This document shows positions 1,654 to 62,458 of a DNA stretch of 64,000 nt, piece by piece (the first letter of the stretch is position 1; each line of letters opens with the position of its first letter). The notes below the pieces were generated by a model. That model did not search any database and had not been told where the DNA came from. It worked only from the letters and a program-made list of their open reading frames with translations. This DNA comes from an uncultured Mycoplasmatota bacterium. GTDB taxonomy: Bacteria; Bacillota_I; Bacilli_A; RF39; UBA660. The DNA lies in assembly GCA_900547775.1 (NCBI GenBank), contig URHW01000003.1, forward strand, positions 3,874 through 67,873. Direction: 5' to 3'. Both the position numbers and the translations under genes were made by a program.

Positions 1654-4004
<2,351 letters not shown>

Positions 4005-5134: not shown

Positions 5135-6760
5135 TTAATTTACTATGTATGGGTCTTCTGATGTTCCTGTGCCACCTGAAATTGTGGCAGATGAAACGAT
5201 AGAAATTGAAGGACGGACCCCACTAGAGTCGTCCACGCTGTAGTTGACGAAGCTGCCATCGCTGCCGTCAACGCCCCAAACGACAGCCTTGCTGCCATCG
5301 AAGGAGCTAGGAGCCAAAGACCACCAATAAGTATCTGTAGCATTTTCTTGTAAATATGTTGTAGTATTTTCTAACATATAAGCATATCCTGCTAATGCTA
5401 ATTCATCTGCTGTTATTAAGCCTACTTTTGAATTTATTTTATTTAATTCTCCATTGCATTTTAAACTAGGACCAGTGCCTCCAGCACTATTATTTTTATT
5501 TACTAATCTTTGCGTAGCACCATAATATGTTATATTTGTACCATATCCTAAACCATTTGGATTCCAGCCATATGGATCATATGTTGTATCTGTTACATTT
5601 GTTTTATCATTGCACCATACAGTATCAGCTATTACTTTTTCATAATCTTTAAGATTATTCTTATCATACCAAGCCTCTAAATTAGTTAATATTGTACTTT
5701 TATTTGTATTTGCATGTGCGCTTGCATAATCACTTGTACCAACAGTACCATACTTAAATCCTACATAAGCATTATCATTATAGTTTGTATTAAATGCACT
5801 TTTATATGTTTCACCAGAATATCTTGCAAATGCTGCACTAGCACTATTATTTGCAGCATCACAAGGATTAGCTGCTCCAGTTGGATTATCATTATGTAAG
5901 ATAAGTTTTACTGAACCATCTCCTCCAACTCTTACTATTCTCCAGCACTTATTAGCAAATTCTACATAGTTGTTTTTTACAGCTCCTCTGAAATAATAGC
6001 TTGTTCCATAATCATCTACTGCAGATGCAAGTAATGCGTCATCAGCAGTAGATATAGCAGTTCCTGGTATGGTTATAGGTTCAGAGATTTCTATGCTATT
6101 TCTTAATGATGCAAGTAGAGTACCATTTCCAACCTCATACCATCCATTAGGTGCTGGCGCTGGTTCTTCTGCTGCATTACTTACTACTACTATTTTACCA
6201 GACCAGTTTTTGTTTAGGCCTTGTTCTGTTGTTACTGCACTATCCATCCAAATTCTTAGATCATAACTTTTTTCTTCGTTAGCTTTAAGTCCGGTATTAA
6301 TAATAATATAACCTTTTTTGTTGTTTTCTAAGTCTGTTAATGTTTGACTTCCTAATATAACGGATTTACTAGTGGTTGTACCTTTAGGTGATATATTTAC
6401 TTTCATATAGTTATCTTTTAAGTAAGATGTATTAGTACTTTCTCTATAAGTACTATCTATTGTAATATATACTTTATCATAACTATTACAGTTGTTTTTT
6501 ATTGTAAAAGTAAATGGGGGTTGTTTAAGACCATCTTCATCAGTTATTGGAAAAGCATCTGTTAAAGATATTTTAGATGTGTCTTCAGTAAGAGTTGTAT
6601 TAAAGCATGTTCTTGATGCTATAGTGTTATTTTCAGTTTGACTTAAGTAAAGTCTAAACCAAGCAAAAGAGACTCCAATTATGCACAGGACTGTTATTAA
6701 TAGTCCATAATATAATTTAAGTCTCTTCTTTTTATTATCTATATTTAATTCATGGTTCAT
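5135..6760 (-). CDS. Family A surface/secreted protein A1: TasA/camelysin-like N-terminus with SipW-type signal peptide, plus conserved Cys-containing C-terminal domain with hypervariable block
   Basis: N-terminal TM followed by SFAWF (A/Y-F-x-T/S-like SipW-cognate signal class); FTFTIKNNCNSY resembles TasA/CalY core; C-terminal ~300 aa about 90% nucleotide identical to 13366-15243 and 60421-62229; 4 conserved Cys. Confidence 0.7.
   Translation of the reverse strand: MNHELNIDNKKKRLKLYYGLLITVLCIIGVSFAWFRLYLSQTENNTIASRTCFNTTLTEDTSKISLTDAFPITDEDGLKQPPFTFTIKNNCNSYDKVYITIDSTYRESTNTSYLKDNYMKVNISPKGTTTSKSVILGSQTLTDLENNKKGYIIINTGLKANEEKSYDLRIWMDSAVTTEQGLNKNWSGKIVVVSNAAEEPAPAPNGWYEVGNGTLLASLRNSIEISEPITIPGTAISTADDALLASAVDDYGTSYYFRGAVKNNYVEFANKCWRIVRVGGDGSVKLILHNDNPTGAANPCDAANNSASAAFARYSGETYKSAFNTNYNDNAYVGFKYGTVGTSDYASAHANTNKSTILTNLEAWYDKNNLKDYEKVIADTVWCNDKTNVTDTTYDPYGWNPNGLGYGTNITYYGATQRLVNKNNSAGGTGPSLKCNGELNKINSKVGLITADELALAGYAYMLENTTTYLQENATDTYWWSLAPSSFDGSKAVVWGVDGSDGSFVNYSVDDSSGVRPSISIVSSATISGGTGTSEDPYIVN
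5219..5308 (-). other. Putative DGR variable region (VR) of A1
   Basis: 30-codon block aligning gaplessly with the equivalent blocks of A2 and A3; differences confined to codon positions 1-2 with position 3 fixed (C/T); GC3-rich codons atypical for this genome; conserved 3' flank GTCCGTCCTTCAATTTCT. Confidence 0.6.
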
Positions 6761-6785
6761 ATATACTCACTATCTTTCTATAGAA

Positions 6786-6813
6786 AGTATATAACAACCC
6801 CCCCCCGTGTCAA
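6786..6813 (-). promoter_or_regulatory. Promoter of A1: TTGACA -35, 16-nt spacer containing G9 tract, TATACT -10
   Basis: Minus-strand reading TTGACA-CGGGGGGGGGTTGTTA-TATACT about 20 nt upstream of the ATG; homologous A3 promoter is TGGACA-17-TATAAT. Confidence 0.65.
6798..6806 (-). repeat. Homopolymeric G9 (C9 on plus strand) tract in promoter spacer, candidate slipped-strand phase-variation switch
   Basis: Nine consecutive C on plus strand; the only long G/C homopolymer noticed in an AT-rich window; placed between -35 and -10. Confidence 0.8.
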
Positions 6814-6842
6814 GTTAATTTTTCACTAAAAATATTCTATAT

Positions 6843-7187
6843 TTAATTTTTCATGAACAAGATAGTAATTGCAAGACCTACTCCTGCAATTATAACTGCA
6901 CTTATTATGGTGATTACTTTGACATATCCATTTGGGTTATTTAATTTTAAAACACGTACTTCGCCATTTTCTTTCATTTCAGCTTCTTTAGTAAGTGTTT
7001 CTTCTCTTGTTTTATTTACTTTGCCTTGATATGTACTTACAAAAGCAATATCTTCTGGATTAGTACTATTTTTAATTTCTTCTACGTATGCATCTAAAAC
7101 ATCTTGTTCTTCTCTTATAATTGTTCCATTAAGATATAATTCTAAGTAATGTTTCATTATTTGCTTAGTTTCTTCACTAAAGCTCAT
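6843..7187 (-). CDS. Hypothetical tail-anchored membrane protein (C-terminal TM helix)
   Basis: 114-aa ORF; acidic N-terminal domain and single C-terminal hydrophobic helix. Confidence 0.4.
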   Translation of the reverse strand: MSFSEETKQIMKHYLELYLNGTIIREEQDVLDAYVEEIKNSTNPEDIAFVSTYQGKVNKTREETLTKEAEMKENGEVRVLKLNNPNGYVKVITIISAVIIAGVGLAITILFMKN

Positions 7188-7196
7188 TTAAACCAC

Positions 7197-7733
7197 CTAC
7201 ACACTCATTAATTCAGTTTCTTTTTCTTTAACCTTTTCATCTACTAACTTATTATATTTAGTAATAAGTTCTTGAATTTCTTCGTTGTACATGTCTTCTT
7301 CGTCTTCTGGAAGTTCTGCTTTTTTAACTTGATTTCTTGCATCTTCTCTAGCATTTCTAAGTGCTACTTTAGCATCTTCTCCCATACCTTTAACTTGTTT
7401 AACGTAGTCTTTTCTTCTTTCTTCATTAAGTTCAGGTATAGTTAAAATAACCATTTCACCATTATTTGTTGGAGTTATTCCTAAGTTAGCTTCATGGATT
7501 GCTTTTTCAATCTCTTTAACTAAGCTTTTATCAAATGGTTTAATAAATAGTTGTCTTGCTTCAGGAACTGTGATGTTTGCGACTGTATTTAAAGGAGTGC
7601 TTGCTCCATAATACATTACATTTATTCCATTAAGCATGGCTGGGTTTGCCCTACCTGCTCTTACGTTTGTAAATCTTGCTTCCATATTTTCTATGGCTTT
7701 TTTCATTTTTGTTTCTGCTTCTTCAATATACAT
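7197..7733 (-). CDS. frr: Ribosome recycling factor
   Basis: Aligns along full length with RRF (…NVRAGRANPAMLNGI…YYG…ERRKD…). Confidence 0.9.
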   Translation of the reverse strand: MYIEEAETKMKKAIENMEARFTNVRAGRANPAMLNGINVMYYGASTPLNTVANITVPEARQLFIKPFDKSLVKEIEKAIHEANLGITPTNNGEMVILTIPELNEERRKDYVKQVKGMGEDAKVALRNAREDARNQVKKAELPEDEEDMYNEEIQELITKYNKLVDEKVKEKETELMSV

Positions 7734-13365: not shown

Positions 13366-15243
13366 TTATTTTACGATGTATGGATTTTCACTGGTACCAT
13401 TTCCGGTTACGTTGGTAGAGGGCTTAAGAGAAATTGAAGGACGAACTGCGCAAATGTTGTTCACGCTGTTGTTGAAGATGCTGCTAATGCCGCCGGAAAC
13501 GAACCAAGCGATAGCGAAGTCACCATTGAAGCCGATAGGAGACAAGGACCACCAATTATCACCAGTAGCATTTTCTTGTAAATATGTAGTTGTATTTTGT
13601 AATCCCAATGCATATCCTGCATATGCTAGTTCATCTGCTGTTATTAAGCCTACTTTTGAATTTATTTTATTTAGTTCTCCATTACATTTTAAACTAGGGC
13701 CCGTGCCACCAGCACCACCACTTGTACTTATTAATCTTTGTGTAGCACCATAATATGTTATATTTTTTGCATATCCTGAACCAGTAACATTCCTCCAACC
13801 CAAAGGATTATAAGTTTTATCTGTTACATTTGTTTTATCATTACACCATATTGTATCAGCTATTTTATCAGCATAATCTTTTAAATTATTTGTATACCAA
13901 GTTTCTAAATTAGTTAGTATTGTACTATTATTTGTATTTGCATGTGCACTTGGATATTCACTAGCACCAGCAGTACCATACTTAAATCCTACATATGCAT
14001 TATCATTATAGTTTGCATTAAATACACTTTTGTATGTTGTACCAGAGTATCTTGCAAATGCTGCACTAGCACTATTATTTGCAGAATCACAAGGATTAGC
14101 AACTCCTGCTGCATTATCATTATGTAAGATAAGTTTTATTGAACCATCTTCACTAATTCTTACTATTCTCCAGCATTTATTAGCAAATTGTACGTAATTA
14201 TTTTTTACTGCTCCTCTAAAATAATAACTTGTTCCATAATCATCTTCTGTACTCGCTAATAAGGCTTCGGTTTTATTTTTATTGGTACATAAGGGTTTAT
14301 ATGTGAAACTACTTGATGTAGCGCTTACTACATAATATACGCAATTTAAATTAGTTGTAGTCATCATTGTTCCAGCAGTACTTGAACCAAAACTGTATTG
14401 TTCTCCATGAGTTAAATATTTACCTACTAAGTCAGAATATGAATTAGCATATGTATCACTTGTTACTGCTATTCCTGTTAAATTAAATTTTGTACCATTT
14501 GCTTCCCAGCCTGTTCCATAGGTTATATAATATGCTTGATATTTTGATGATACACTTGTAGTTCGACTTTCGGCATCATCTAAAGTATGTGCACTCACTT
14601 CCTTTCCAGGTGTAGTTATTGGTGCATTTACTTCATTTTTTGCTAGTATAGTTTCTGAAAAAGTAGATGTAGTAGGTGCTTTATCACTTGTTATCTCTAC
14701 ATGAGCACTAAATGCTGCTCCTTGATTTGCGTTTTGGCTAGTTGCTTTCTTAGGATAATATATCTTTAATAGATATGTATGTTTTGCATTATTTGCTTTT
14801 ACAAAGTGTCCCTTACCTAATTCAATAGATGTACCCGTAATATCAGTTTTTGATATTGTTGGTATAACTTCTCCATTTGTACTTGTATTAGTACTTACTA
14901 GTTCATATTGTAATGGATCATCTGTTTTAAATGTGTTTGAGTCTACTACTAAAGTTAACTTATAGTACATTTCAGCATCTGTTGTATTATTACCAGTTAC
15001 TGTTATAGTTTTTGTAGCCCATACATCATCTTTAGGATATATTCCAGCTAGATCAATATTTGCTCCTCCATCATAAGTTATTTTCATTGTTCCGGCATCA
15101 GCTCTTACTGTAGTACTATTTTCAGAACTCATTCCAGCAGTAAAGAATGCATATGTTGCTCCAATAAAGATTATTGCAACAAGGATTCCAATATATAAAT
15201 ATATTTTTTTAAATTGTTTATCCATTTTACTATCTCCTATCAT
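13366..15243 (-). CDS. Family A protein A2: camelysin/TasA-like N-module (type II) plus conserved C-terminal domain with hypervariable block
   Basis: N-terminus YAFFTAGMSS…AGTMKITY resembles SipW-cognate signal and TasA/CalY start; first 185 aa homologous to ORF 46350-46907; C-terminal 300 aa paralogous to A1/A3. Confidence 0.7.
   Translation of the reverse strand: MIGDSKMDKQFKKIYLYIGILVAIIFIGATYAFFTAGMSSENSTTVRADAGTMKITYDGGANIDLAGIYPKDDVWATKTITVTGNNTTDAEMYYKLTLVVDSNTFKTDDPLQYELVSTNTSTNGEVIPTISKTDITGTSIELGKGHFVKANNAKHTYLLKIYYPKKATSQNANQGAAFSAHVEITSDKAPTTSTFSETILAKNEVNAPITTPGKEVSAHTLDDAESRTTSVSSKYQAYYITYGTGWEANGTKFNLTGIAVTSDTYANSYSDLVGKYLTHGEQYSFGSSTAGTMMTTTNLNCVYYVVSATSSSFTYKPLCTNKNKTEALLASTEDDYGTSYYFRGAVKNNYVQFANKCWRIVRISEDGSIKLILHNDNAAGVANPCDSANNSASAAFARYSGTTYKSVFNANYNDNAYVGFKYGTAGASEYPSAHANTNNSTILTNLETWYTNNLKDYADKIADTIWCNDKTNVTDKTYNPLGWRNVTGSGYAKNITYYGATQRLISTSGGAGGTGPSLKCNGELNKINSKVGLITADELAYAGYALGLQNTTTYLQENATGDNWWSLSPIGFNGDFAIAWFVSGGISSIFNNSVNNICAVRPSISLKPSTNVTGNGTSENPYIVK
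13447..13536 (-). other. Putative DGR variable region (VR) of A2
   Basis: Same 30-codon block as in A1/A3; contains AAC AAC AGC GTG AAC AAC; variation versus paralogs at codon positions 1-2 only. Confidence 0.6.
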
Positions 15244-15293
15244 AATTAAAAGTATAAAGCATTATAGTTATTTTTGCAAACAAAAAATAGAGC

Positions 15294-23485: not shown

Positions 23486-26400
23486 CTAATTGAATTTCTT
23501 CTTTAAAATAGCTAGTAATATAAGTCCTAAAGCGCTAGTGCCCATTAGACTATATTCTAATAGATAACTATCACCTTCAATTCCAGTGTATGGAATATCT
23601 GGTTCTCCGTTAGTATCATCTCCACCTTCACCCATAACGAATTGGTATACATAGGTTACAACGATATCTTCTTTAGTATATTTACCTTTTACTTCGCCAA
23701 TAGTATTGATTAGTTCATAATCAGTGATAGTAGCTGGACTAGTTTGATAATCTGTACCAACTTGTCCATTAGTAGTAGTTTCTTCTAAAAGTACTTTACC
23801 ATCTTCATCAACATATTTAGTAATAACTTTACCCATATCTTTCTTGTAGTAGTAAATTACTTCAGTTACTTCATCAGTAAACATTCCACTAGCATTTTCT
23901 GGAGTACTTACTAAAATGTATCCATAAACATCTGCTTCTTTAGTAGTATAGTCTTTACTTACTTTACCATTAATAGTTTCATCTTCAGCAATTTTAATTG
24001 TAGTACCTTCTTCATAATGGTGAACAATTACTTTAGCATCCTTTAGAGAATAGATAAATGTAATTGTATTATCACTACTTTTTAATTTAATAGTTTGCTC
24101 TGTAGCACTTTCTAAATTATAGTTAGCAAATACTTTATTATCAGTTTCATCTTTAGCATAAGCAGTATAATTATCATTAATTCTACCAGTATCTTTAACT
24201 GGGTTAATTAAATCTATTACATTACCATCTTTGATTGTTACATATCTTACAGTAACATCAGTCTTCTTTAATTGATAGTAGAAAGTTGCTTCTTGCTTTT
24301 CACTTGTTAAAGTTCCACTTGTTGTACCTTTACTTTCTACATATTCATAGTCACCTAATTCTTCTGTTTTAGGACTAAATGAGAAAGATGTACCAATTTT
24401 ACCATTAACAACGTCATCTTTGAATAATTCTGTTGTTGTTTTATTACCATTATTATCAATGATATAGTGATGAGCTACGGCTCCAGCACTTTCAGCCTTT
24501 TCATAGTAGAAAGTATATTCTTTAGTAGTTAAATCAAATGTTGCGTTTTGAGTCTTGCTACCAACTACAACATAGTCTTTAATATCTTTAGCATTAATTA
24601 CTTTTGTTTCAGTTACTTTACCATCAAAAGTATCATCATCTACTAATTTTGTATTAGTATCTTTTTCTACATAATGAACAATAATCTTAGAATCTTTAAG
24701 TTCATAATAGAAATTGATAACATTTCCTTCTTTAGCAAGGGTAATAGTTTCTTGATTATTACTTACTAAATTATAATTATTTAAAGTTAAAGCGTATTCT
24801 GTAACCTTATCCCCAATATATAAGTCTCCATTATTAGCGTTCTTAGAAATTGTTTTACTATCAGCTACTTTTTTATTAGAGCCTTTTTCTAAGTAGTTAA
24901 CAGTGTATTCTGCTGTAACACCCTTTACTGTGATAGTAACAGTTGAAACTTCTGACTTTGCATAAGTTTTATTTCCTTCTTTATCTGTGATTGTAGTTTT
25001 AATATAATATGTGAAATTATCATCACCACGGAAATTGTTATTTGGATTATATTTAAGTGATCCATCTTGATTAAGTTCTAGTGAACCATATTTTGTATTG
25101 TTAACGATTACAATTTCATCTAGTACACTTTTAGCTTCAGCTTCTTGTTTTCCTTTGTAATCATTAGATTTAATACCATCATTAGCATCTACTACTAATT
25201 CTTCATTAGTATTTGTTTCATAATTATCGTCCATAGTTCTTGGTGCAATAGGTGCAACAGGGTTGATTAGGTTTTCATTAATCTTACCATCAACATTTTC
25301 ATAGAACTTATTACCATCAGCAGCGGTACCAGTAACAGTAGCACCATTATTAGTGTACATACTACCATAATAATTTTCATTTGCTGTTACAGTAAATTCT
25401 AATTCTTCTGGTTTTTTAGAAGATAATTCATTAAATTTATAGATAATTATTGTTTGATCTTTTTCTTCAACAATTTCTACGGCATCGTCATATTTTTCTT
25501 TTAAAGCAACTTTATCAACAGTGAATGTACTTGGAACAACGTCTCTAATAGTTAAGTCTTTAGCAACAACTTCTATATCTTTTGATACAGCAGCAAATGC
25601 TTCGTTTAATTTAGCACTATCATTTGCATCAAAGTATCTGCCACCATTTTTAACAATTGATTGTAAAAATTTTTCAGCATCACTATCAGCACCTACTCCA
25701 AAGCCAATTGAGTATATTTTACCAGTAAATGATTCTGCTTCTTCTTTTGCAGCCTCACTAGGTTTTTTCATGTAACCAGCATCACATGCTCCTACAATTT
25801 CATATCCTTCATACCAGTCAAGATATTTAGAATAATATCCTCTCGCCTCACATTTATAAGTTGTGCCATCAACTCTATCTTCATATGTGGCATATCCATC
25901 CCTAACATAATTTCCATTTAGTTCATATCTGTCTGATGTTGATGTAAAACCTATAGTACTTAGACTCTCATGTTCATCTGTTTTTCCTGTACCATGAGTA
26001 TGTTGCACTCCATCTTTAACTGTTGTAAAGAACGTTGGAAGTCCATCTGAAAGAACAATTAAGTCTTTTTCATTCTTTTTGTCAGTAAACAATTTCTTTG
26101 CTTCTCTGATACCTTCTTGAACGTTAGTTCCACCATCTGCTGCTTCTTCACTGTTTAAGCAAGCATCTAACTTTGCAGCATCATCTGAAAGTGCACATGT
26201 TTTAGTTACGTTAGTATCATACCAAACTACGCCAATCTTGATTTTTCCCTTATTTTCTTCTACTAGTAGGCTATCGATGAAGGCATCAGTAGCATCTTTT
26301 AGTGTGTCTAGTTTAGATTTACTAGCATTTACTAAATAATCTTTCATACTTCCTGATGAGTCTAGAACAAGTACTATTTCTCTATCGCTTTGTTCTGTTA

Positions 26401-26605
26401 TGGTGTATGGATTACCACTTACAGTTATTTTAACTTTAGCACTTCTACTAGTTTCATCACCGATACGTTCTGCAGTTTTAGTAGCAGTAACTTTACCAGC
26501 GTTTGGATTAGTATCAGCAAATACAACAAAAGTATTACCAAATACAGAAGTAATTGTTATAACTAATGCCATAAGTAACTGACCTAAATTTTTCAATTTT
26601 TTCAT
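23486..26605 (-). CDS. Cell-wall anchored adhesin: signal peptide, vWA domain, about five MucBP-like repeats, C-terminal sorting signal IPYTG
   Basis: MIDAS motif VLVLDSSGSM; repeated V-x-V-x-Y-V-x-x-D-G…TFYY modules; C-terminus IPYTG plus hydrophobic stretch plus KKKFN. Confidence 0.75.
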   Translation of the reverse strand: MKKLKNLGQLLMALVITITSVFGNTFVVFADTNPNAGKVTATKTAERIGDETSRSAKVKITVSGNPYTITEQSDREIVLVLDSSGSMKDYLVNASKSKLDTLKDATDAFIDSLLVEENKGKIKIGVVWYDTNVTKTCALSDDAAKLDACLNSEEAADGGTNVQEGIREAKKLFTDKKNEKDLIVLSDGLPTFFTTVKDGVQHTHGTGKTDEHESLSTIGFTSTSDRYELNGNYVRDGYATYEDRVDGTTYKCEARGYYSKYLDWYEGYEIVGACDAGYMKKPSEAAKEEAESFTGKIYSIGFGVGADSDAEKFLQSIVKNGGRYFDANDSAKLNEAFAAVSKDIEVVAKDLTIRDVVPSTFTVDKVALKEKYDDAVEIVEEKDQTIIIYKFNELSSKKPEELEFTVTANENYYGSMYTNNGATVTGTAADGNKFYENVDGKINENLINPVAPIAPRTMDDNYETNTNEELVVDANDGIKSNDYKGKQEAEAKSVLDEIVIVNNTKYGSLELNQDGSLKYNPNNNFRGDDNFTYYIKTTITDKEGNKTYAKSEVSTVTITVKGVTAEYTVNYLEKGSNKKVADSKTISKNANNGDLYIGDKVTEYALTLNNYNLVSNNQETITLAKEGNVINFYYELKDSKIIVHYVEKDTNTKLVDDDTFDGKVTETKVINAKDIKDYVVVGSKTQNATFDLTTKEYTFYYEKAESAGAVAHHYIIDNNGNKTTTELFKDDVVNGKIGTSFSFSPKTEELGDYEYVESKGTTSGTLTSEKQEATFYYQLKKTDVTVRYVTIKDGNVIDLINPVKDTGRINDNYTAYAKDETDNKVFANYNLESATEQTIKLKSSDNTITFIYSLKDAKVIVHHYEEGTTIKIAEDETINGKVSKDYTTKEADVYGYILVSTPENASGMFTDEVTEVIYYYKKDMGKVITKYVDEDGKVLLEETTTNGQVGTDYQTSPATITDYELINTIGEVKGKYTKEDIVVTYVYQFVMGEGGDDTNGEPDIPYTGIEGDSYLLEYSLMGTSALGLILLAILKKKFN

Positions 26606-60420: not shown

Positions 60421-62229
60421 TTAAGTACTTATTATGAATGGGCTATCACTGGTACCATTTCCGGTTACGTTGGTCGTCGACTTAAGAGAAATTGAAGGAC
60501 GGACGCCGTAAGTGAGGAACACGTAGTTGCCGCCGAAGTAGCCATTGCTGCCGATAACGTACCAAACGCTAGCGCCGGCACCATAGAAGAAGTAAGGAGA
60601 CAAGGACCACCAATAAGTATCCGTAGCATTTTCTTGTAAATATGTTGTAGAATTTTGTAATCCATAAGCATATCCTGCTAATGCTAACTCATCTGCTGTT
60701 ATTAAGCCTACTTTTGAATTTATTTTACTTAATTCACCATTACATTTTAAACTTGGACCCGTACCACCAGCACTACCACTAGTACCTACTAATCTCTGTG
60801 TAGCACCATAATATGTTACATTTTTAGCATATCCTAAACCATTTACGTTACTGTAATTATAAGGGTTAAATGTTGTATCTGTTACATTTGTTTTATCATT
60901 ACACCATACAGTATCAGCTATTACTTTTTCATAATTTTTAAGATTATTCTTTTCATACCAAGCCTCTAAATTAGTTAGTATTGTACTTTTATTTGTATTT
61001 GCATGAGTAAGAGCATAGTCACCAGCACCAACAGTTCCATACTTAAATCCTACATATGCATTATCATTATAGTTTGTATTAAATGCACTTTTATATGTTT
61101 CACCAGAATATCTTGCAAATGCTGCAGTAGTACTATTATTTGCAGAATTACATGGATTAGCTGCTTTTGCAGTATTATCATTATGTAAGATAAGTTTAAC
61201 TGAACCATCTCCACCAACTCTTACTATTCTCCAGCACTTATTAGCAAATTCTACATAGTTATTTTTAACTGCTCCTCTAAAGTAGTATGATGTACCATAA
61301 TCATCAGGAGTACTTGCTAAAAGTGCTTCACTTGCAGTAGATACTTCTTTTCCTGGTGCAGTTATTGGAGTCTTTACTTCATTATTTGCTAGAATTGCTT
61401 CTGCTAAAGTTGGCTTTTTTGTTTCAAATGTAGCATTACACCTTACATTACCATCACTAATTGCAGTTGTAAGAATCCATTTTGTTCCATTCCAAGTTAT
61501 ACTTTCGTTAGCATCTATCTTTTTACCATTTCTAGTACACTCTACAGATGCTGTATATTTATCTGTTGTTGGAAATGTACTACTTTCAACTCCATCTATT
61601 AGAGCTGCAACATATAAATCATCTTTTGGTCTTGTCTTAACAGTTCCTACTACTGATATTTTTACTTGATAGTTTTTACCTTCAATATCTTCTTTAGTCC
61701 AGATATCTTTATTATTACTATCAAGCCACATTCTAAAGTTAAATGTTCTACTTTCATCTTTAGATATGCCATCTCCTCTTTTTAGGATATAGTTTTCAGT
61801 TATATTGTATTTAGATAGACTTTGCGGAGTAGATATAGATTCTAGAGTATTAATTACTGTACCATTTAAGTCATTGTCTCCTAGTAAAGATACTTTTACA
61901 TATTTAGAGTCTATTTTGTTAGTTGTACTAATTACGGATGCGATAACATAATACTCAATGTAGTTATCACATTTATTTTTTATAGTAAATGTGTATGGTG
62001 TTTGTTCTAAGGCTTCGCCTTCAGATATTGGGTAAGTATTAAGTAAATTAATTTCATTTTGTCCATTGAATTCTAAATCCATACATGATGCTGCTAGAGT
62101 GTTTGTATCAGTTTGACTTGAATAATTAGTAAATACCGCATAACTTACTCCAGTTATCATAAGTACTACTGCTAGCATTATACATAAAATTAACATTCTT
62201 TTTTTATATCTATAGAGACTATGGTTCAT
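60421..62229 (-). CDS. Family A protein A3: TasA/camelysin-like N-module (type I, as A1) plus conserved C-terminal domain with hypervariable block
   Basis: VSYAVFTNYSS signal class; YTFTIKNKCDNY; C-terminal 300 aa paralogous to A1/A2. Confidence 0.7.
   Translation of the reverse strand: MNHSLYRYKKRMLILCIMLAVVLMITGVSYAVFTNYSSQTDTNTLAASCMDLEFNGQNEINLLNTYPISEGEALEQTPYTFTIKNKCDNYIEYYVIASVISTTNKIDSKYVKVSLLGDNDLNGTVINTLESISTPQSLSKYNITENYILKRGDGISKDESRTFNFRMWLDSNNKDIWTKEDIEGKNYQVKISVVGTVKTRPKDDLYVAALIDGVESSTFPTTDKYTASVECTRNGKKIDANESITWNGTKWILTTAISDGNVRCNATFETKKPTLAEAILANNEVKTPITAPGKEVSTASEALLASTPDDYGTSYYFRGAVKNNYVEFANKCWRIVRVGGDGSVKLILHNDNTAKAANPCNSANNSTTAAFARYSGETYKSAFNTNYNDNAYVGFKYGTVGAGDYALTHANTNKSTILTNLEAWYEKNNLKNYEKVIADTVWCNDKTNVTDTTFNPYNYSNVNGLGYAKNVTYYGATQRLVGTSGSAGGTGPSLKCNGELSKINSKVGLITADELALAGYAYGLQNSTTYLQENATDTYWWSLSPYFFYGAGASVWYVIGSNGYFGGNYVFLTYGVRPSISLKSTTNVTGNGTSDSPFIIST
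60505..60594 (-). other. Putative DGR variable region (VR) of A3
   Basis: Same 30-codon block; NNC-type variation relative to A1/A2; conserved 3' flank GTCCGTCCTTCAATTTCT. Confidence 0.6.
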
Positions 62230-62254: not shown

Positions 62255-62283
62255 ATTATATAACAACCACCACCCAGTGTCCA
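62255..62283 (-). promoter_or_regulatory. Promoter of A3: TGGACA-17-TATAAT
   Basis: Minus-strand reading TGGACA CTGGGTGGTGGTTGTTA TATAAT; spacer is the interrupted counterpart of the A1 G9 tract. Confidence 0.65.
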
Positions 62284-62330: not shown

Positions 62331-62358
62331 TACAAAAAAAATCGCATTTTTGCGATTT
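62331..62358 (-). terminator. Rho-independent terminator downstream of proS/small ORF
   Basis: AAATCGCA-AAAA-TGCGATTT hairpin followed by T8 on minus strand. Confidence 0.65.
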
Positions 62359-62458
62359 ACATTACAGCTTGAAATAATAGAACTCCAAACCAGAAACCTG
62401 CTACTATAGTGATAGCACAGATTCCAATTGCTAGTAATGTTTTACTTTTCTTGTTCAT
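62357..62458 (-). CDS. Possible 33-aa small membrane protein
   Basis: Manual translation MNKKSKTLLAIGICAITIVAGFWFGVLLFQAVM; stop overlaps terminator stem; no strong RBS checked. Confidence 0.3.
   Translation of the reverse strand: MNKKSKTLLAIGICAITIVAGFWFGVLLFQAVM

Follow-up and report, generated by a model that had tools for sequence, protein, structure and literature searches.

A candidate slipped-strand poly-G element in a conserved promoter cassette of a lectin-like gene family from uncultured gut Bacilli

The window, by which we mean the whole 64-kb stretch of DNA analysed here (29.5% GC), is a chromosomal segment of low-GC, Bacilli-type character in which nearly all genes lie on the minus strand. 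Three paralogous genes on that strand are referred to as A1 (5135–6760, 541 aa), A2 (13366–15243, with its true start probably at the ATG at 15225) and A3 (60421–62229, 602 aa); an interval at 1654–3474 that had been a candidate for the third paralog was rejected, as it is dnaK and the real A2 is the gene given above. Along the minus strand, A1 stands in the order frr, a gene for a 114-aa membrane protein, A1, and hrcA–grpE–dnaK, and family genes generally lie scattered between housekeeping genes (frr, hrcA, proS, efp). The window also encodes penicillin-binding proteins, a D-Ala-D-Ala carboxypeptidase and a VWA/MucBP adhesin; these indicate that the organism has a cell wall. Identical or near-identical contigs are found in human-gut metagenomes, and the closest species-representative MAGs, at ~80–90% nucleotide identity, are labelled ‘uncultured Bacilli bacterium’ and ‘uncultured Tenericutes bacterium UMGS1372’.

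A1, A2 and A3 have a common architecture, with an N-terminal basic segment and hydrophobic helix (in A1 a signal or anchor helix), a variable, poorly conserved middle, and a 300-aa C-terminal domain that is 72–78% identical among the three, a value of 71% having also been obtained between A3 and A1. Family genes are numerous, with 15–20 in each of the related MAGs; searches with the C-terminal domain returned 6,253 representatives of 50%-identity clusters at E ≤ 1e-3, and the domain occurs in up to 25 tandem copies in giant proteins. At the level of profiles, A3 passes the Pfam gathering threshold for DUF6273 (PF19789; 24.2 bits against a cutoff of 23.5), whereas A1 and A2 gave no match to PF19789, and A1 none to any Pfam or NCBIfam model; the same profile matches 7 of 24 diverse relatives (best E = 1.2e-8), and some A1 orthologues have precomputed PF19789 matches. 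An AF2 model of the C-terminal domain built with diverse relatives reached a pLDDT of 93.2 and a pTM of 0.91, and Foldseek placed it closest to 9qa6 (E = 8.8e-4), the next matches being a Legionella adhesin domain, a Bacteroides fimbrial protein, the proteins TvpA, TaqVP and Mtd from diversity-generating retroelement (DGR) systems, and dozens of C-type lectins. [quoted passage not shown] A full-length model of A1 from 24 close homologues begins with an N-terminal helix and continues into beta domains, at a pLDDT (38.8) that makes it unusable. Taken together, the lectin-like model, the fold matches and the DUF6273 assignment mean that the family products are best read as predicted secreted or membrane-anchored binding proteins. 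Their N-termini carry no lipobox (A1 reads ...ITVLCIIGVSFAWF, and the A3 helix is without Cys), and lipoprotein processing of the kind known for vlp products was rejected on this ground; A2 has a weak, sub-threshold match to a SipW-type signal peptide model. Within the species, A1 stands out as a hotspot of diversity, as is typical of phase-variable loci: nucleotide diversity is 0.04–0.12 in the gene and 0.005–0.017 in its flanks, with alleles of 530 to 629 aa.

Read directly from the minus strand, the region upstream of A1 contains TTGACA (6813–6808), a C (6807), nine consecutive G residues (6806–6798), TTGTTA (6797–6792) and TATACT (6791–6786). This corresponds to a −35 hexamer of perfect consensus (6808–6813), which is conserved in 47 distinct cassettes of the kind described below, a 16-nt spacer (6792–6807) of which the G9 run occupies 9 positions, and a −10 hexamer (6786–6791) within the cassette consensus of TATAAT or TATACT; a scan for consensus promoters scored the site at 11 of 12 with a spacer of 16. 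The ATG of A1, at 6760, follows 25 nt downstream of the −10. The layout given in the preliminary description (perfect −35, 16-nt spacer, G9 run, good −10) is therefore accurate to the base. So is its remark that the window holds no other long G/C homopolymer: the run, which appears as C9 on the plus strand, is the sole G/C homopolymer of six or more residues in the 64 kb, and from base composition 0.0056 runs of nine or more would be expected in a window of this kind. We regard the tract (6798–6806) as the putative hypermutable element of the A1 promoter.

Upstream of the −35 lies a further part of the cassette (6814–6840), consisting of an ATAGAATA box (6833–6840) and an A/T-rich AAAAATTAAC that abuts the −35, both part of the 47-cassette consensus; this is possibly an UP element or a regulator site. 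Downstream, the predicted transcription start region, its position inferred from the −10, and a short 5′UTR (6761–6785) include a conserved CTATAGAAAG box (6774–6783) and a Shine–Dalgarno-like GTGAG. An overlapping TGn-TATATA in the A1 promoter can also be read as an extended −10 which, if used, would be less dependent on the spacing to the −35. We found no convincing terminator between the upstream 114-aa ORF and A1, so that read-through from the frr operon could provide basal expression independent of the tract, and at the A1 locus specifically this may blur an OFF state; A3, unlike A1, is preceded by a clean terminator. An Rfam scan of the whole window identified no RNA family, so that neither a riboswitch nor a leader accounts for the region. 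An intramolecular G-quadruplex was likewise rejected, as one G run cannot form it.

The promoters of the two paralogs provide a comparison within the window. A3 is preceded by TGGACA (62283–62278), the spacer CTGGGTGGTGGTTGTTA and TATAAT (62260–62255); this promoter (62255–62283, minus strand) belongs to the same cassette as that of A1, with 80% identity between the two across 106 nt of promoter and 5′UTR, and its G-rich spacer is interrupted and 17 nt long. The locus was followed into other strains through the neighbouring gene for a 160-aa protein, an exact-protein look-up of A3 having returned no match, and there all 11 of the 11 strains compared have a spacer of exactly 17 nt, even though substitutions have changed its sequence (CCGGGTGGGTGGTGTTA versus CTGGGTGGTGGTTGTTA). 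The contrast originally drawn between A1 and a T-interrupted tract in a 17-nt spacer at A3 thus not only stands but is sharpened by the constancy of the spacing, and the A3 promoter is a length-stable, ‘locked’ version of the cassette. The A2 promoter (TTGCAA, 15279–15274; 17-nt spacer; TATACT, 15256–15251; minus strand) is tract-free and unrelated to the A1/A3 cassette.

The preliminary description treated the tract as peculiar to one paralog. It belongs instead to a family-wide promoter cassette found in multiple species. When metagenome contigs were scanned for a pattern built on the sequences flanking the tract, 27 further sites emerged, in at least five genomic contexts and upstream of different paralogs. 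From 47 distinct cassettes we derived the consensus ATAGAAtA-N11-AAAaATTAACTTGACA-[C/T]-Gn-TTGTTATATAcT-ttCTATAGAAa-RBS-ATGaAcc, which in short form is a sigma-A-type arrangement of ATAGAATA-N11-AAAAATTAACTTGACA-[C/T]-Gn-TTGTTATATA(C/A)T-...CTATAGAAAG-RBS-ATG; in all 47, as at A1, a homopolymer of about seven or more residues lies between the −35 and the −10. The association between long G runs and this position is nearly exclusive: in the 1.01 Mb of DNA retrieved, 81 of the 82 G runs of at least seven residues sit in the spacer of a cassette, and at 79 species-representative loci each of the 23 such runs separates the −35 (TTGACA-like) from the −10 (TATAAT-like) of a family gene. The cassette is conserved in at least eight species-level MAGs, with the identity of the downstream proteins falling to 33%; tract-bearing loci include genes that are 33–50% identical to A1 as well as a MAG of a ruminant Erysipelotrichaceae. 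Within single genomes the cassette is reused: two MAGs, CAKOOK01 and CAKOJR01, each have it upstream of no fewer than six or seven of their 15–20 family members. The tract is thus both over-represented and conserved, the pattern looked for as a sign of selection, and the maintenance across species of an uninterrupted G8–G11 run in a genome of 29.5% GC requires selection for the repeat itself. Conserved ATAGAA boxes, ~59 nt apart, flank the core promoter; their presence suggests an additional classical regulator, and changes in the tract would alter the phasing of these boxes too.

Tract length was compared between consensus metagenome assemblies. In 39 independent assemblies of the A1 locus the tract is G9 (n = 31), G8 (n = 7) or G6AGG (n = 1), so that the outcome named in the preliminary description as refuting phase variation, a tract invariant across strains, is not what was found. 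G8 occurs on at least five haplotype backgrounds, and in each case the nearest neighbour is a G9 contig. The flanks are otherwise near-identical, and contigs that differ in tract length can be only 1–8 SNPs apart in 5 kb; between contigs L128 (G8) and L132 (G6AGG), 5 kb of flank contain just one SNP. One identical protein (P0044) is encoded by contigs with G9 (seven) or G8 (two), another (P0027) by contigs with G8, G9 or G6AGG. By contrast, three A7 runs within 2.4 kb, which serve as a control, show no variation in 21–34 contigs, and no other indel is present among the compared contigs in the 2.4 kb upstream of the A1 locus; as far as consensus assemblies reveal, the tract therefore changes length between close genomes far more often than its flanks. 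At sister loci, where identical cassettes have different flanks, lengths extend from G8 to G11, with one context represented by five G10 and two G9 contigs, another by G9, G10 and G11, and a third by two G9 and one G8, and two contigs have an AG7 tract. That the same lengths turn up on several backgrounds would fit with reversible change. The preliminary description had proposed a toggle of ±1 nt between spacers of 16 and 17 nt; length change as such is borne out, but at A1 the alternative to G9 is G8 (15 nt) and never G10 (17 nt), which is found in 0 of 39 assemblies, so that the only slippage-type change observed at this locus is contraction. Undercalling, a contraction bias or a bet-hedging, ‘mostly low’ regime are possible reasons both for the missing G10 and for the 16-nt spacing of most poly-G promoters (see below), and selection is another for the former.

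The significance of these lengths depends on what spacing is normal for the family. Tract-free family promoters have a 17-nt spacer in 31 of 38 cases, whereas among 24 poly-G promoters counted at species level the spacer is 16 nt in 17, 17 nt in 5, and 15 and 14 nt in one each (Fisher p = 3e-6). Derivatives in which the tract is broken by substitutions (A3 of the window, L067, L079 and L090) also have 17 nt. Since tract-free and interrupted promoters agree on this norm, G10 corresponds to canonical spacing, G9 is one nucleotide short and G8 two; and the interrupted derivatives, by keeping exactly 17 nt, show that selection acts on spacing, from which the pure tracts depart. From spacer rules and by analogy with known systems, we infer that tract length influences the level of transcription. 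With the gradation reported for meningococcal porA (see below) as a guide, the G9 of the window would represent an intermediate or low expression state, one slip away from either full activity or near-silence. The modal 16-nt spacing is, however, usually still functional, so that the difference between G9 and G10 may be that of a modest rheostat rather than of an ON/OFF switch.

Together, these comparisons make it probable, in our judgement, that the G9 tract is a simple-sequence contingency element within a conserved promoter cassette, acting as a slipped-strand ‘volume control’ at multiple loci. Three other explanations have to be set against this. One holds that the tract is a stable promoter element, which tunes melting or supercoiling or forms a regulator site, and that its length differences are slow neutral polymorphism; a 16-nt spacer would then work nearly like one of 17 nt, with read-through or the extended −10 supplying expression. 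It can draw on 16 nt being the modal spacing (17 of the 24 promoters at species level, 31 of the 39 contigs of the A1 locus), on the conserved ATAGAA boxes on either side of the promoter, and on the missing terminator and possible TGnTATATA reading at A1. We nevertheless consider it unlikely, because the tract has changed length repeatedly, on many haplotypes and among contigs otherwise nearly identical, in flanks without other indels, because interrupted derivatives hold exactly 17 nt, and because a pure run of 8–11 G residues at this GC content would hardly persist across species without selection. Chance is a still poorer account: a homopolymer without function would explain one tract in one window and nothing further, at an expected frequency far below one per window, and the fact that 47 distinct cassettes, from several species, all have the tract at one and the same place in the spacer leaves this explanation with practically no weight.

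The remaining alternative is technical, namely that the length variation arises from sequencing or assembly and that the true tract is uniform at each locus. Homopolymers are indeed error-prone, several of the contigs with lengths other than G9 have only 2–7× coverage, the A1 locus shows contraction only, and L015 (G8) and L146 (in which the gene is split) resemble long-read assemblies; L015 is best discounted since L146, a similar assembly, has a probable frameshift error. On the other hand, G8 at A1 is present in at least six short-read assemblies from different studies, and lengths other than G9 are found at 12–32× coverage in MEGAHIT, SPAdes and scaffolded assemblies, with G8 at 11.8× in L128 (A1 locus) and at 31.6× in L025 (sister locus). 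G10 and G11 were assembled at other loci, including one at 28× (L037), which shows that long tracts are not systematically shortened, and the modal length differs by locus (G9 at A1, G10 in another context), which points to heritable structure rather than random error. Interrupted variants such as G6AGG and AG7, finally, cannot be miscalls caused by slippage. An artefact of this kind is thus improbable, more so than a stable element, and the contingency element remains the reading that we prefer.

If the tract is such an element, slipped-strand mispairing at replication would add or remove single G residues and thereby shift the distance between −35 and −10 in steps of 1 nt (G10, 17 nt; G9, 16 nt; G8, 15 nt). 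As this spacing sets the contact of RNA polymerase with both hexamers, the downstream gene would be switched stochastically and reversibly, with high expression at G10, reduced expression at G9 and very low expression at G8 or at G11 and above. Each cassette-bearing paralog would switch independently of the others, giving combinatorial variation of the cell surface; frequent length change within a clone, its reversibility and the surface exposure of the proteins are inferred rather than observed. The comparative evidence (recurrent length polymorphism, conservation of the cassette and the 17-nt norm) supports the tract as a candidate for slipped-strand phase variation, as first suggested. On balance, we also lean, with less assurance, towards a broader proposal: in a genome-reduced but walled clade of human-gut Bacilli, the cassette would be a portable poly-G module that constitutes a ‘phasome’, tuning at least six to seven dispersed genes of a lectin-like surface family with 15–20 members, most of them parked one slip below the optimum. 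A population with such a system would continuously sample combinations of binding or antigenic properties, and might in this way evade IgA or phage, or shift its niche. The phasome may also be coupled to an exchange of variable regions between paralogs, for which the cassette and the C-terminal domain would serve as homology arms.

Switches based on homopolymers in promoter spacers are textbook knowledge for Neisseria, Haemophilus and Mycoplasma, and the poly-C switches in the promoter spacers of N. meningitidis opc and fetA are among them. For the meningococcal porA promoter, van der Ende et al. reportedly established in 1995 that 11, 10 and 9 G residues correspond to spacings of 17, 16 and 15 nt. 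Expression of porA is full with 11G, 2-fold lower with 10G and 13-fold lower with 9G (PMC3639595). Like porA, the cassette has a G homopolymer between the −35 and −10 of a sigma-70-type promoter, and one-G steps in its length, from G10 through G9 to G8, correspond to the same 17-, 16- and 15-nt spacings as in porA; graded expression belongs to porA and is extended to the cassette by analogy. PorA is a surface protein under immune selection, and the cassette products are predicted surface proteins. The two systems differ in that porA is a single gene of a Gram-negative pathogen whereas the cassette is common to many paralogs of an uncultured, Gram-positive-type gut commensal, and in that the porA product is a porin whereas the cassette product is an unrelated, C-type-lectin-like protein.

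A second close parallel is the vlp system of Mycoplasma hyorhinis, in which, according to the passage of PMC10502178 that cites Citti and Wise 1995, every vlp promoter has a poly-A tract and insertions or deletions switch the genes independently. As in vlp, there is a multigene family in which each cassette-bearing gene has its own conserved homopolymer promoter, an arrangement seen in both CAKOOK01 and CAKOJR01, and the host lineage has the Mollicutes as phylogenetic neighbours, with ‘Tenericutes’ or ‘Mollicutes’ as the labels of related MAGs. Unlike the vlp genes, which are clustered, encode lipoproteins with C-terminal tandem repeats and have poly-A tracts, the genes described here are dispersed, have poly-G tracts and encode proteins with a globular C-type-lectin-like domain and no lipobox; for these reasons membership in the vlp system was rejected. 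The host differs too, having penicillin-binding proteins and a walled cell. Other known cases also place a simple repeat in the −35/−10 spacer, or overlapping it, and exert control through spacing: examples are Vmm of Mycoplasma mycoides, cited in PMC10502178, and the TA repeats of Haemophilus influenzae hifA/hifB, which figure among the references of PMC5084427. These, like opc and fetA, are single loci with other repeat units in other organisms, whereas the cassette is reused across a large family.

Parallels of a different sort concern the protein. DUF6273 has been described as C-lectin-like (PMC10743442). Kin of the family by DUF6273 or the C-type-lectin fold include the N-terminal domain of the T. 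ramosa IgA protease, phage tentaclins, and the DGR targets TvpA, Mtd and TaqVP. Those systems either owe their diversity to a retroelement or show none, whereas here promoter slippage, together with allelic or paralog exchange, would supply the variation; no DGR was seen here.

A promoter switch based on a simple sequence repeat (SSR) is in itself of a known kind, and its occurrence as a cassette in walled, low-GC gut Bacilli would be a new instance. Literature searches retrieved no paper that links RF39, a candidate placement of the lineage, with phase variation, nor a description of the cassette. A 2025 review noted that multi-locus phase-variable genomes seem to be restricted to pathogens, and asked whether this reflects bias in databases or sampling (PMC11868660). 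The system described here is a candidate counter-example, a multi-locus SSR system, conserved across species and visible directly in public metagenome assemblies, in a common human-gut commensal lineage, and if the phasome proposal holds, it would be a contingency system in the style of vlp and porA whose host is a prevalent commensal, not a pathogen. It also provides candidates for variable host- or phage-facing binding proteins in a clade without a cultured model. The case is concrete and easily tested, since gut metagenome reads in which tract lengths could be tallied already exist. Finally, there is a practical side to the observation, in that loci with the cassette break assemblies and will be mis-scored as errors.

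The gene A1 (5135-6760, minus strand), which encodes one of the window's three paralogs with a C-type-lectin-like (DUF6273) C-terminal domain, is a sharp diversity hotspot, while the neighbouring housekeeping genes are nearly invariant. Across the A1 loci compared (L001-L021, L027, L038 and L128-L137, from metagenome assemblies), π is 0.04-0.12 within A1 versus 0.005-0.017 in the flanks, and allele length spans 530-629 aa. The A1 locus in L038 holds another paralog type altogether (MNQRLKQYKK...), and in the family promoter cassette (-35 TTGACA, poly-G tract in the spacer, -10 TATACT) of L137, the 5' half has been replaced by that of another paralog. Read from the sequences, the diversity of A1 and these two loci suggest recombination or gene conversion between family members. 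The cassette's surroundings also vary: in L088 (2788-2861) a tRNA gene precedes it by 87 nt, and elsewhere it comes after unrelated sequences; with such differing sequences preceding it, the cassette travels with the gene, not with the locus.

Many metagenome contigs terminate at the cassette or within ~115 nt of it (L121, L125, L133, L137, L059, L069, L072, L083, L089, L093, L028, L036 and L042). L121 begins at TTGACAC and L125 within the G run itself, and the contig ends near the cassette often follow a common sequence, AACGGGAAGTTA(A/G)ATATAAATTTTACA. The repeated cassette appears to have broken the assemblies, with heterogeneity of the tract possibly a further cause.

The core promoter is flanked on both sides by conserved ATAGAA boxes on the minus strand, one (ATAGAATA, 6833-6840) ~21 nt 5' of the -35 and the other (CTATAGAAAG, 6774-6783) at the predicted transcription start; the pair is also present in nearly all cassettes among L022-L137. 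These boxes may be sites for a dedicated regulator. Because they lie on either side of the tract, ~59 nt apart when it is G9, their phasing would shift with tract length.

Several family promoters carry unusual tracts: just G4 in L094 (~2960-2995), giving an 11-nt spacer; TTGACA-G7 in L096 (2950-2976), with 14 nt; and CGAG6 in L112 (94-120) and AG7 in both L026 and L030, each with 15 nt. Such degenerate or odd tracts may represent locked-off promoters or decaying switches. A family promoter of different build, TTGCAA-17-TATACT, occurs in one MAG (L050, ~2900-2930) with a C6 run in its spacer, perhaps a second homopolymer site, if a weaker one; in the orthologous promoter of L082 this run is broken (CCATCT). 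The A2 promoter (within 15225-15281) has no tract and a 17-nt spacer. The mechanically listed A2 start, ATG 15243, lies just 8 nt past the -10 TATACT (15256-15251); judging from the AGGAGA 5' of it, ATG 15225 is probably the true start.

In L146, whose name looks like that of a long-read contig, the orthologue of A3 (5406-7210) is broken into ORFs of 435 and 168 aa, probably through a homopolymer indel error, and tract lengths from such assemblies, including that of the A1-locus G8 contig L015, therefore need caution. Between proS and the A3 terminator lies a conserved 33-aa hydrophobic ORF (MNKKSKTLLAIGICAITIVAGFWFGVLLFQAVM; 62355-62456, minus strand), gene-called in 10/10 related contigs (L138-L147).

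Clustered at 50% identity, the C-terminal lectin-like domain of the A family has >6,000 representatives, and it occurs elsewhere in up to 25 tandem copies in giant proteins (giant or multi-copy examples being P0121, of 4905 aa, P0129 and P0133), which makes the domain family very large; it is essentially unstudied. The window also encodes a 1039-aa protein (23486-26605, minus strand) whose domains are VWA, bacterial Ig and MucBP, the last in four copies; it is probably an adhesin that binds mucus, which would fit life at the gut mucosa.
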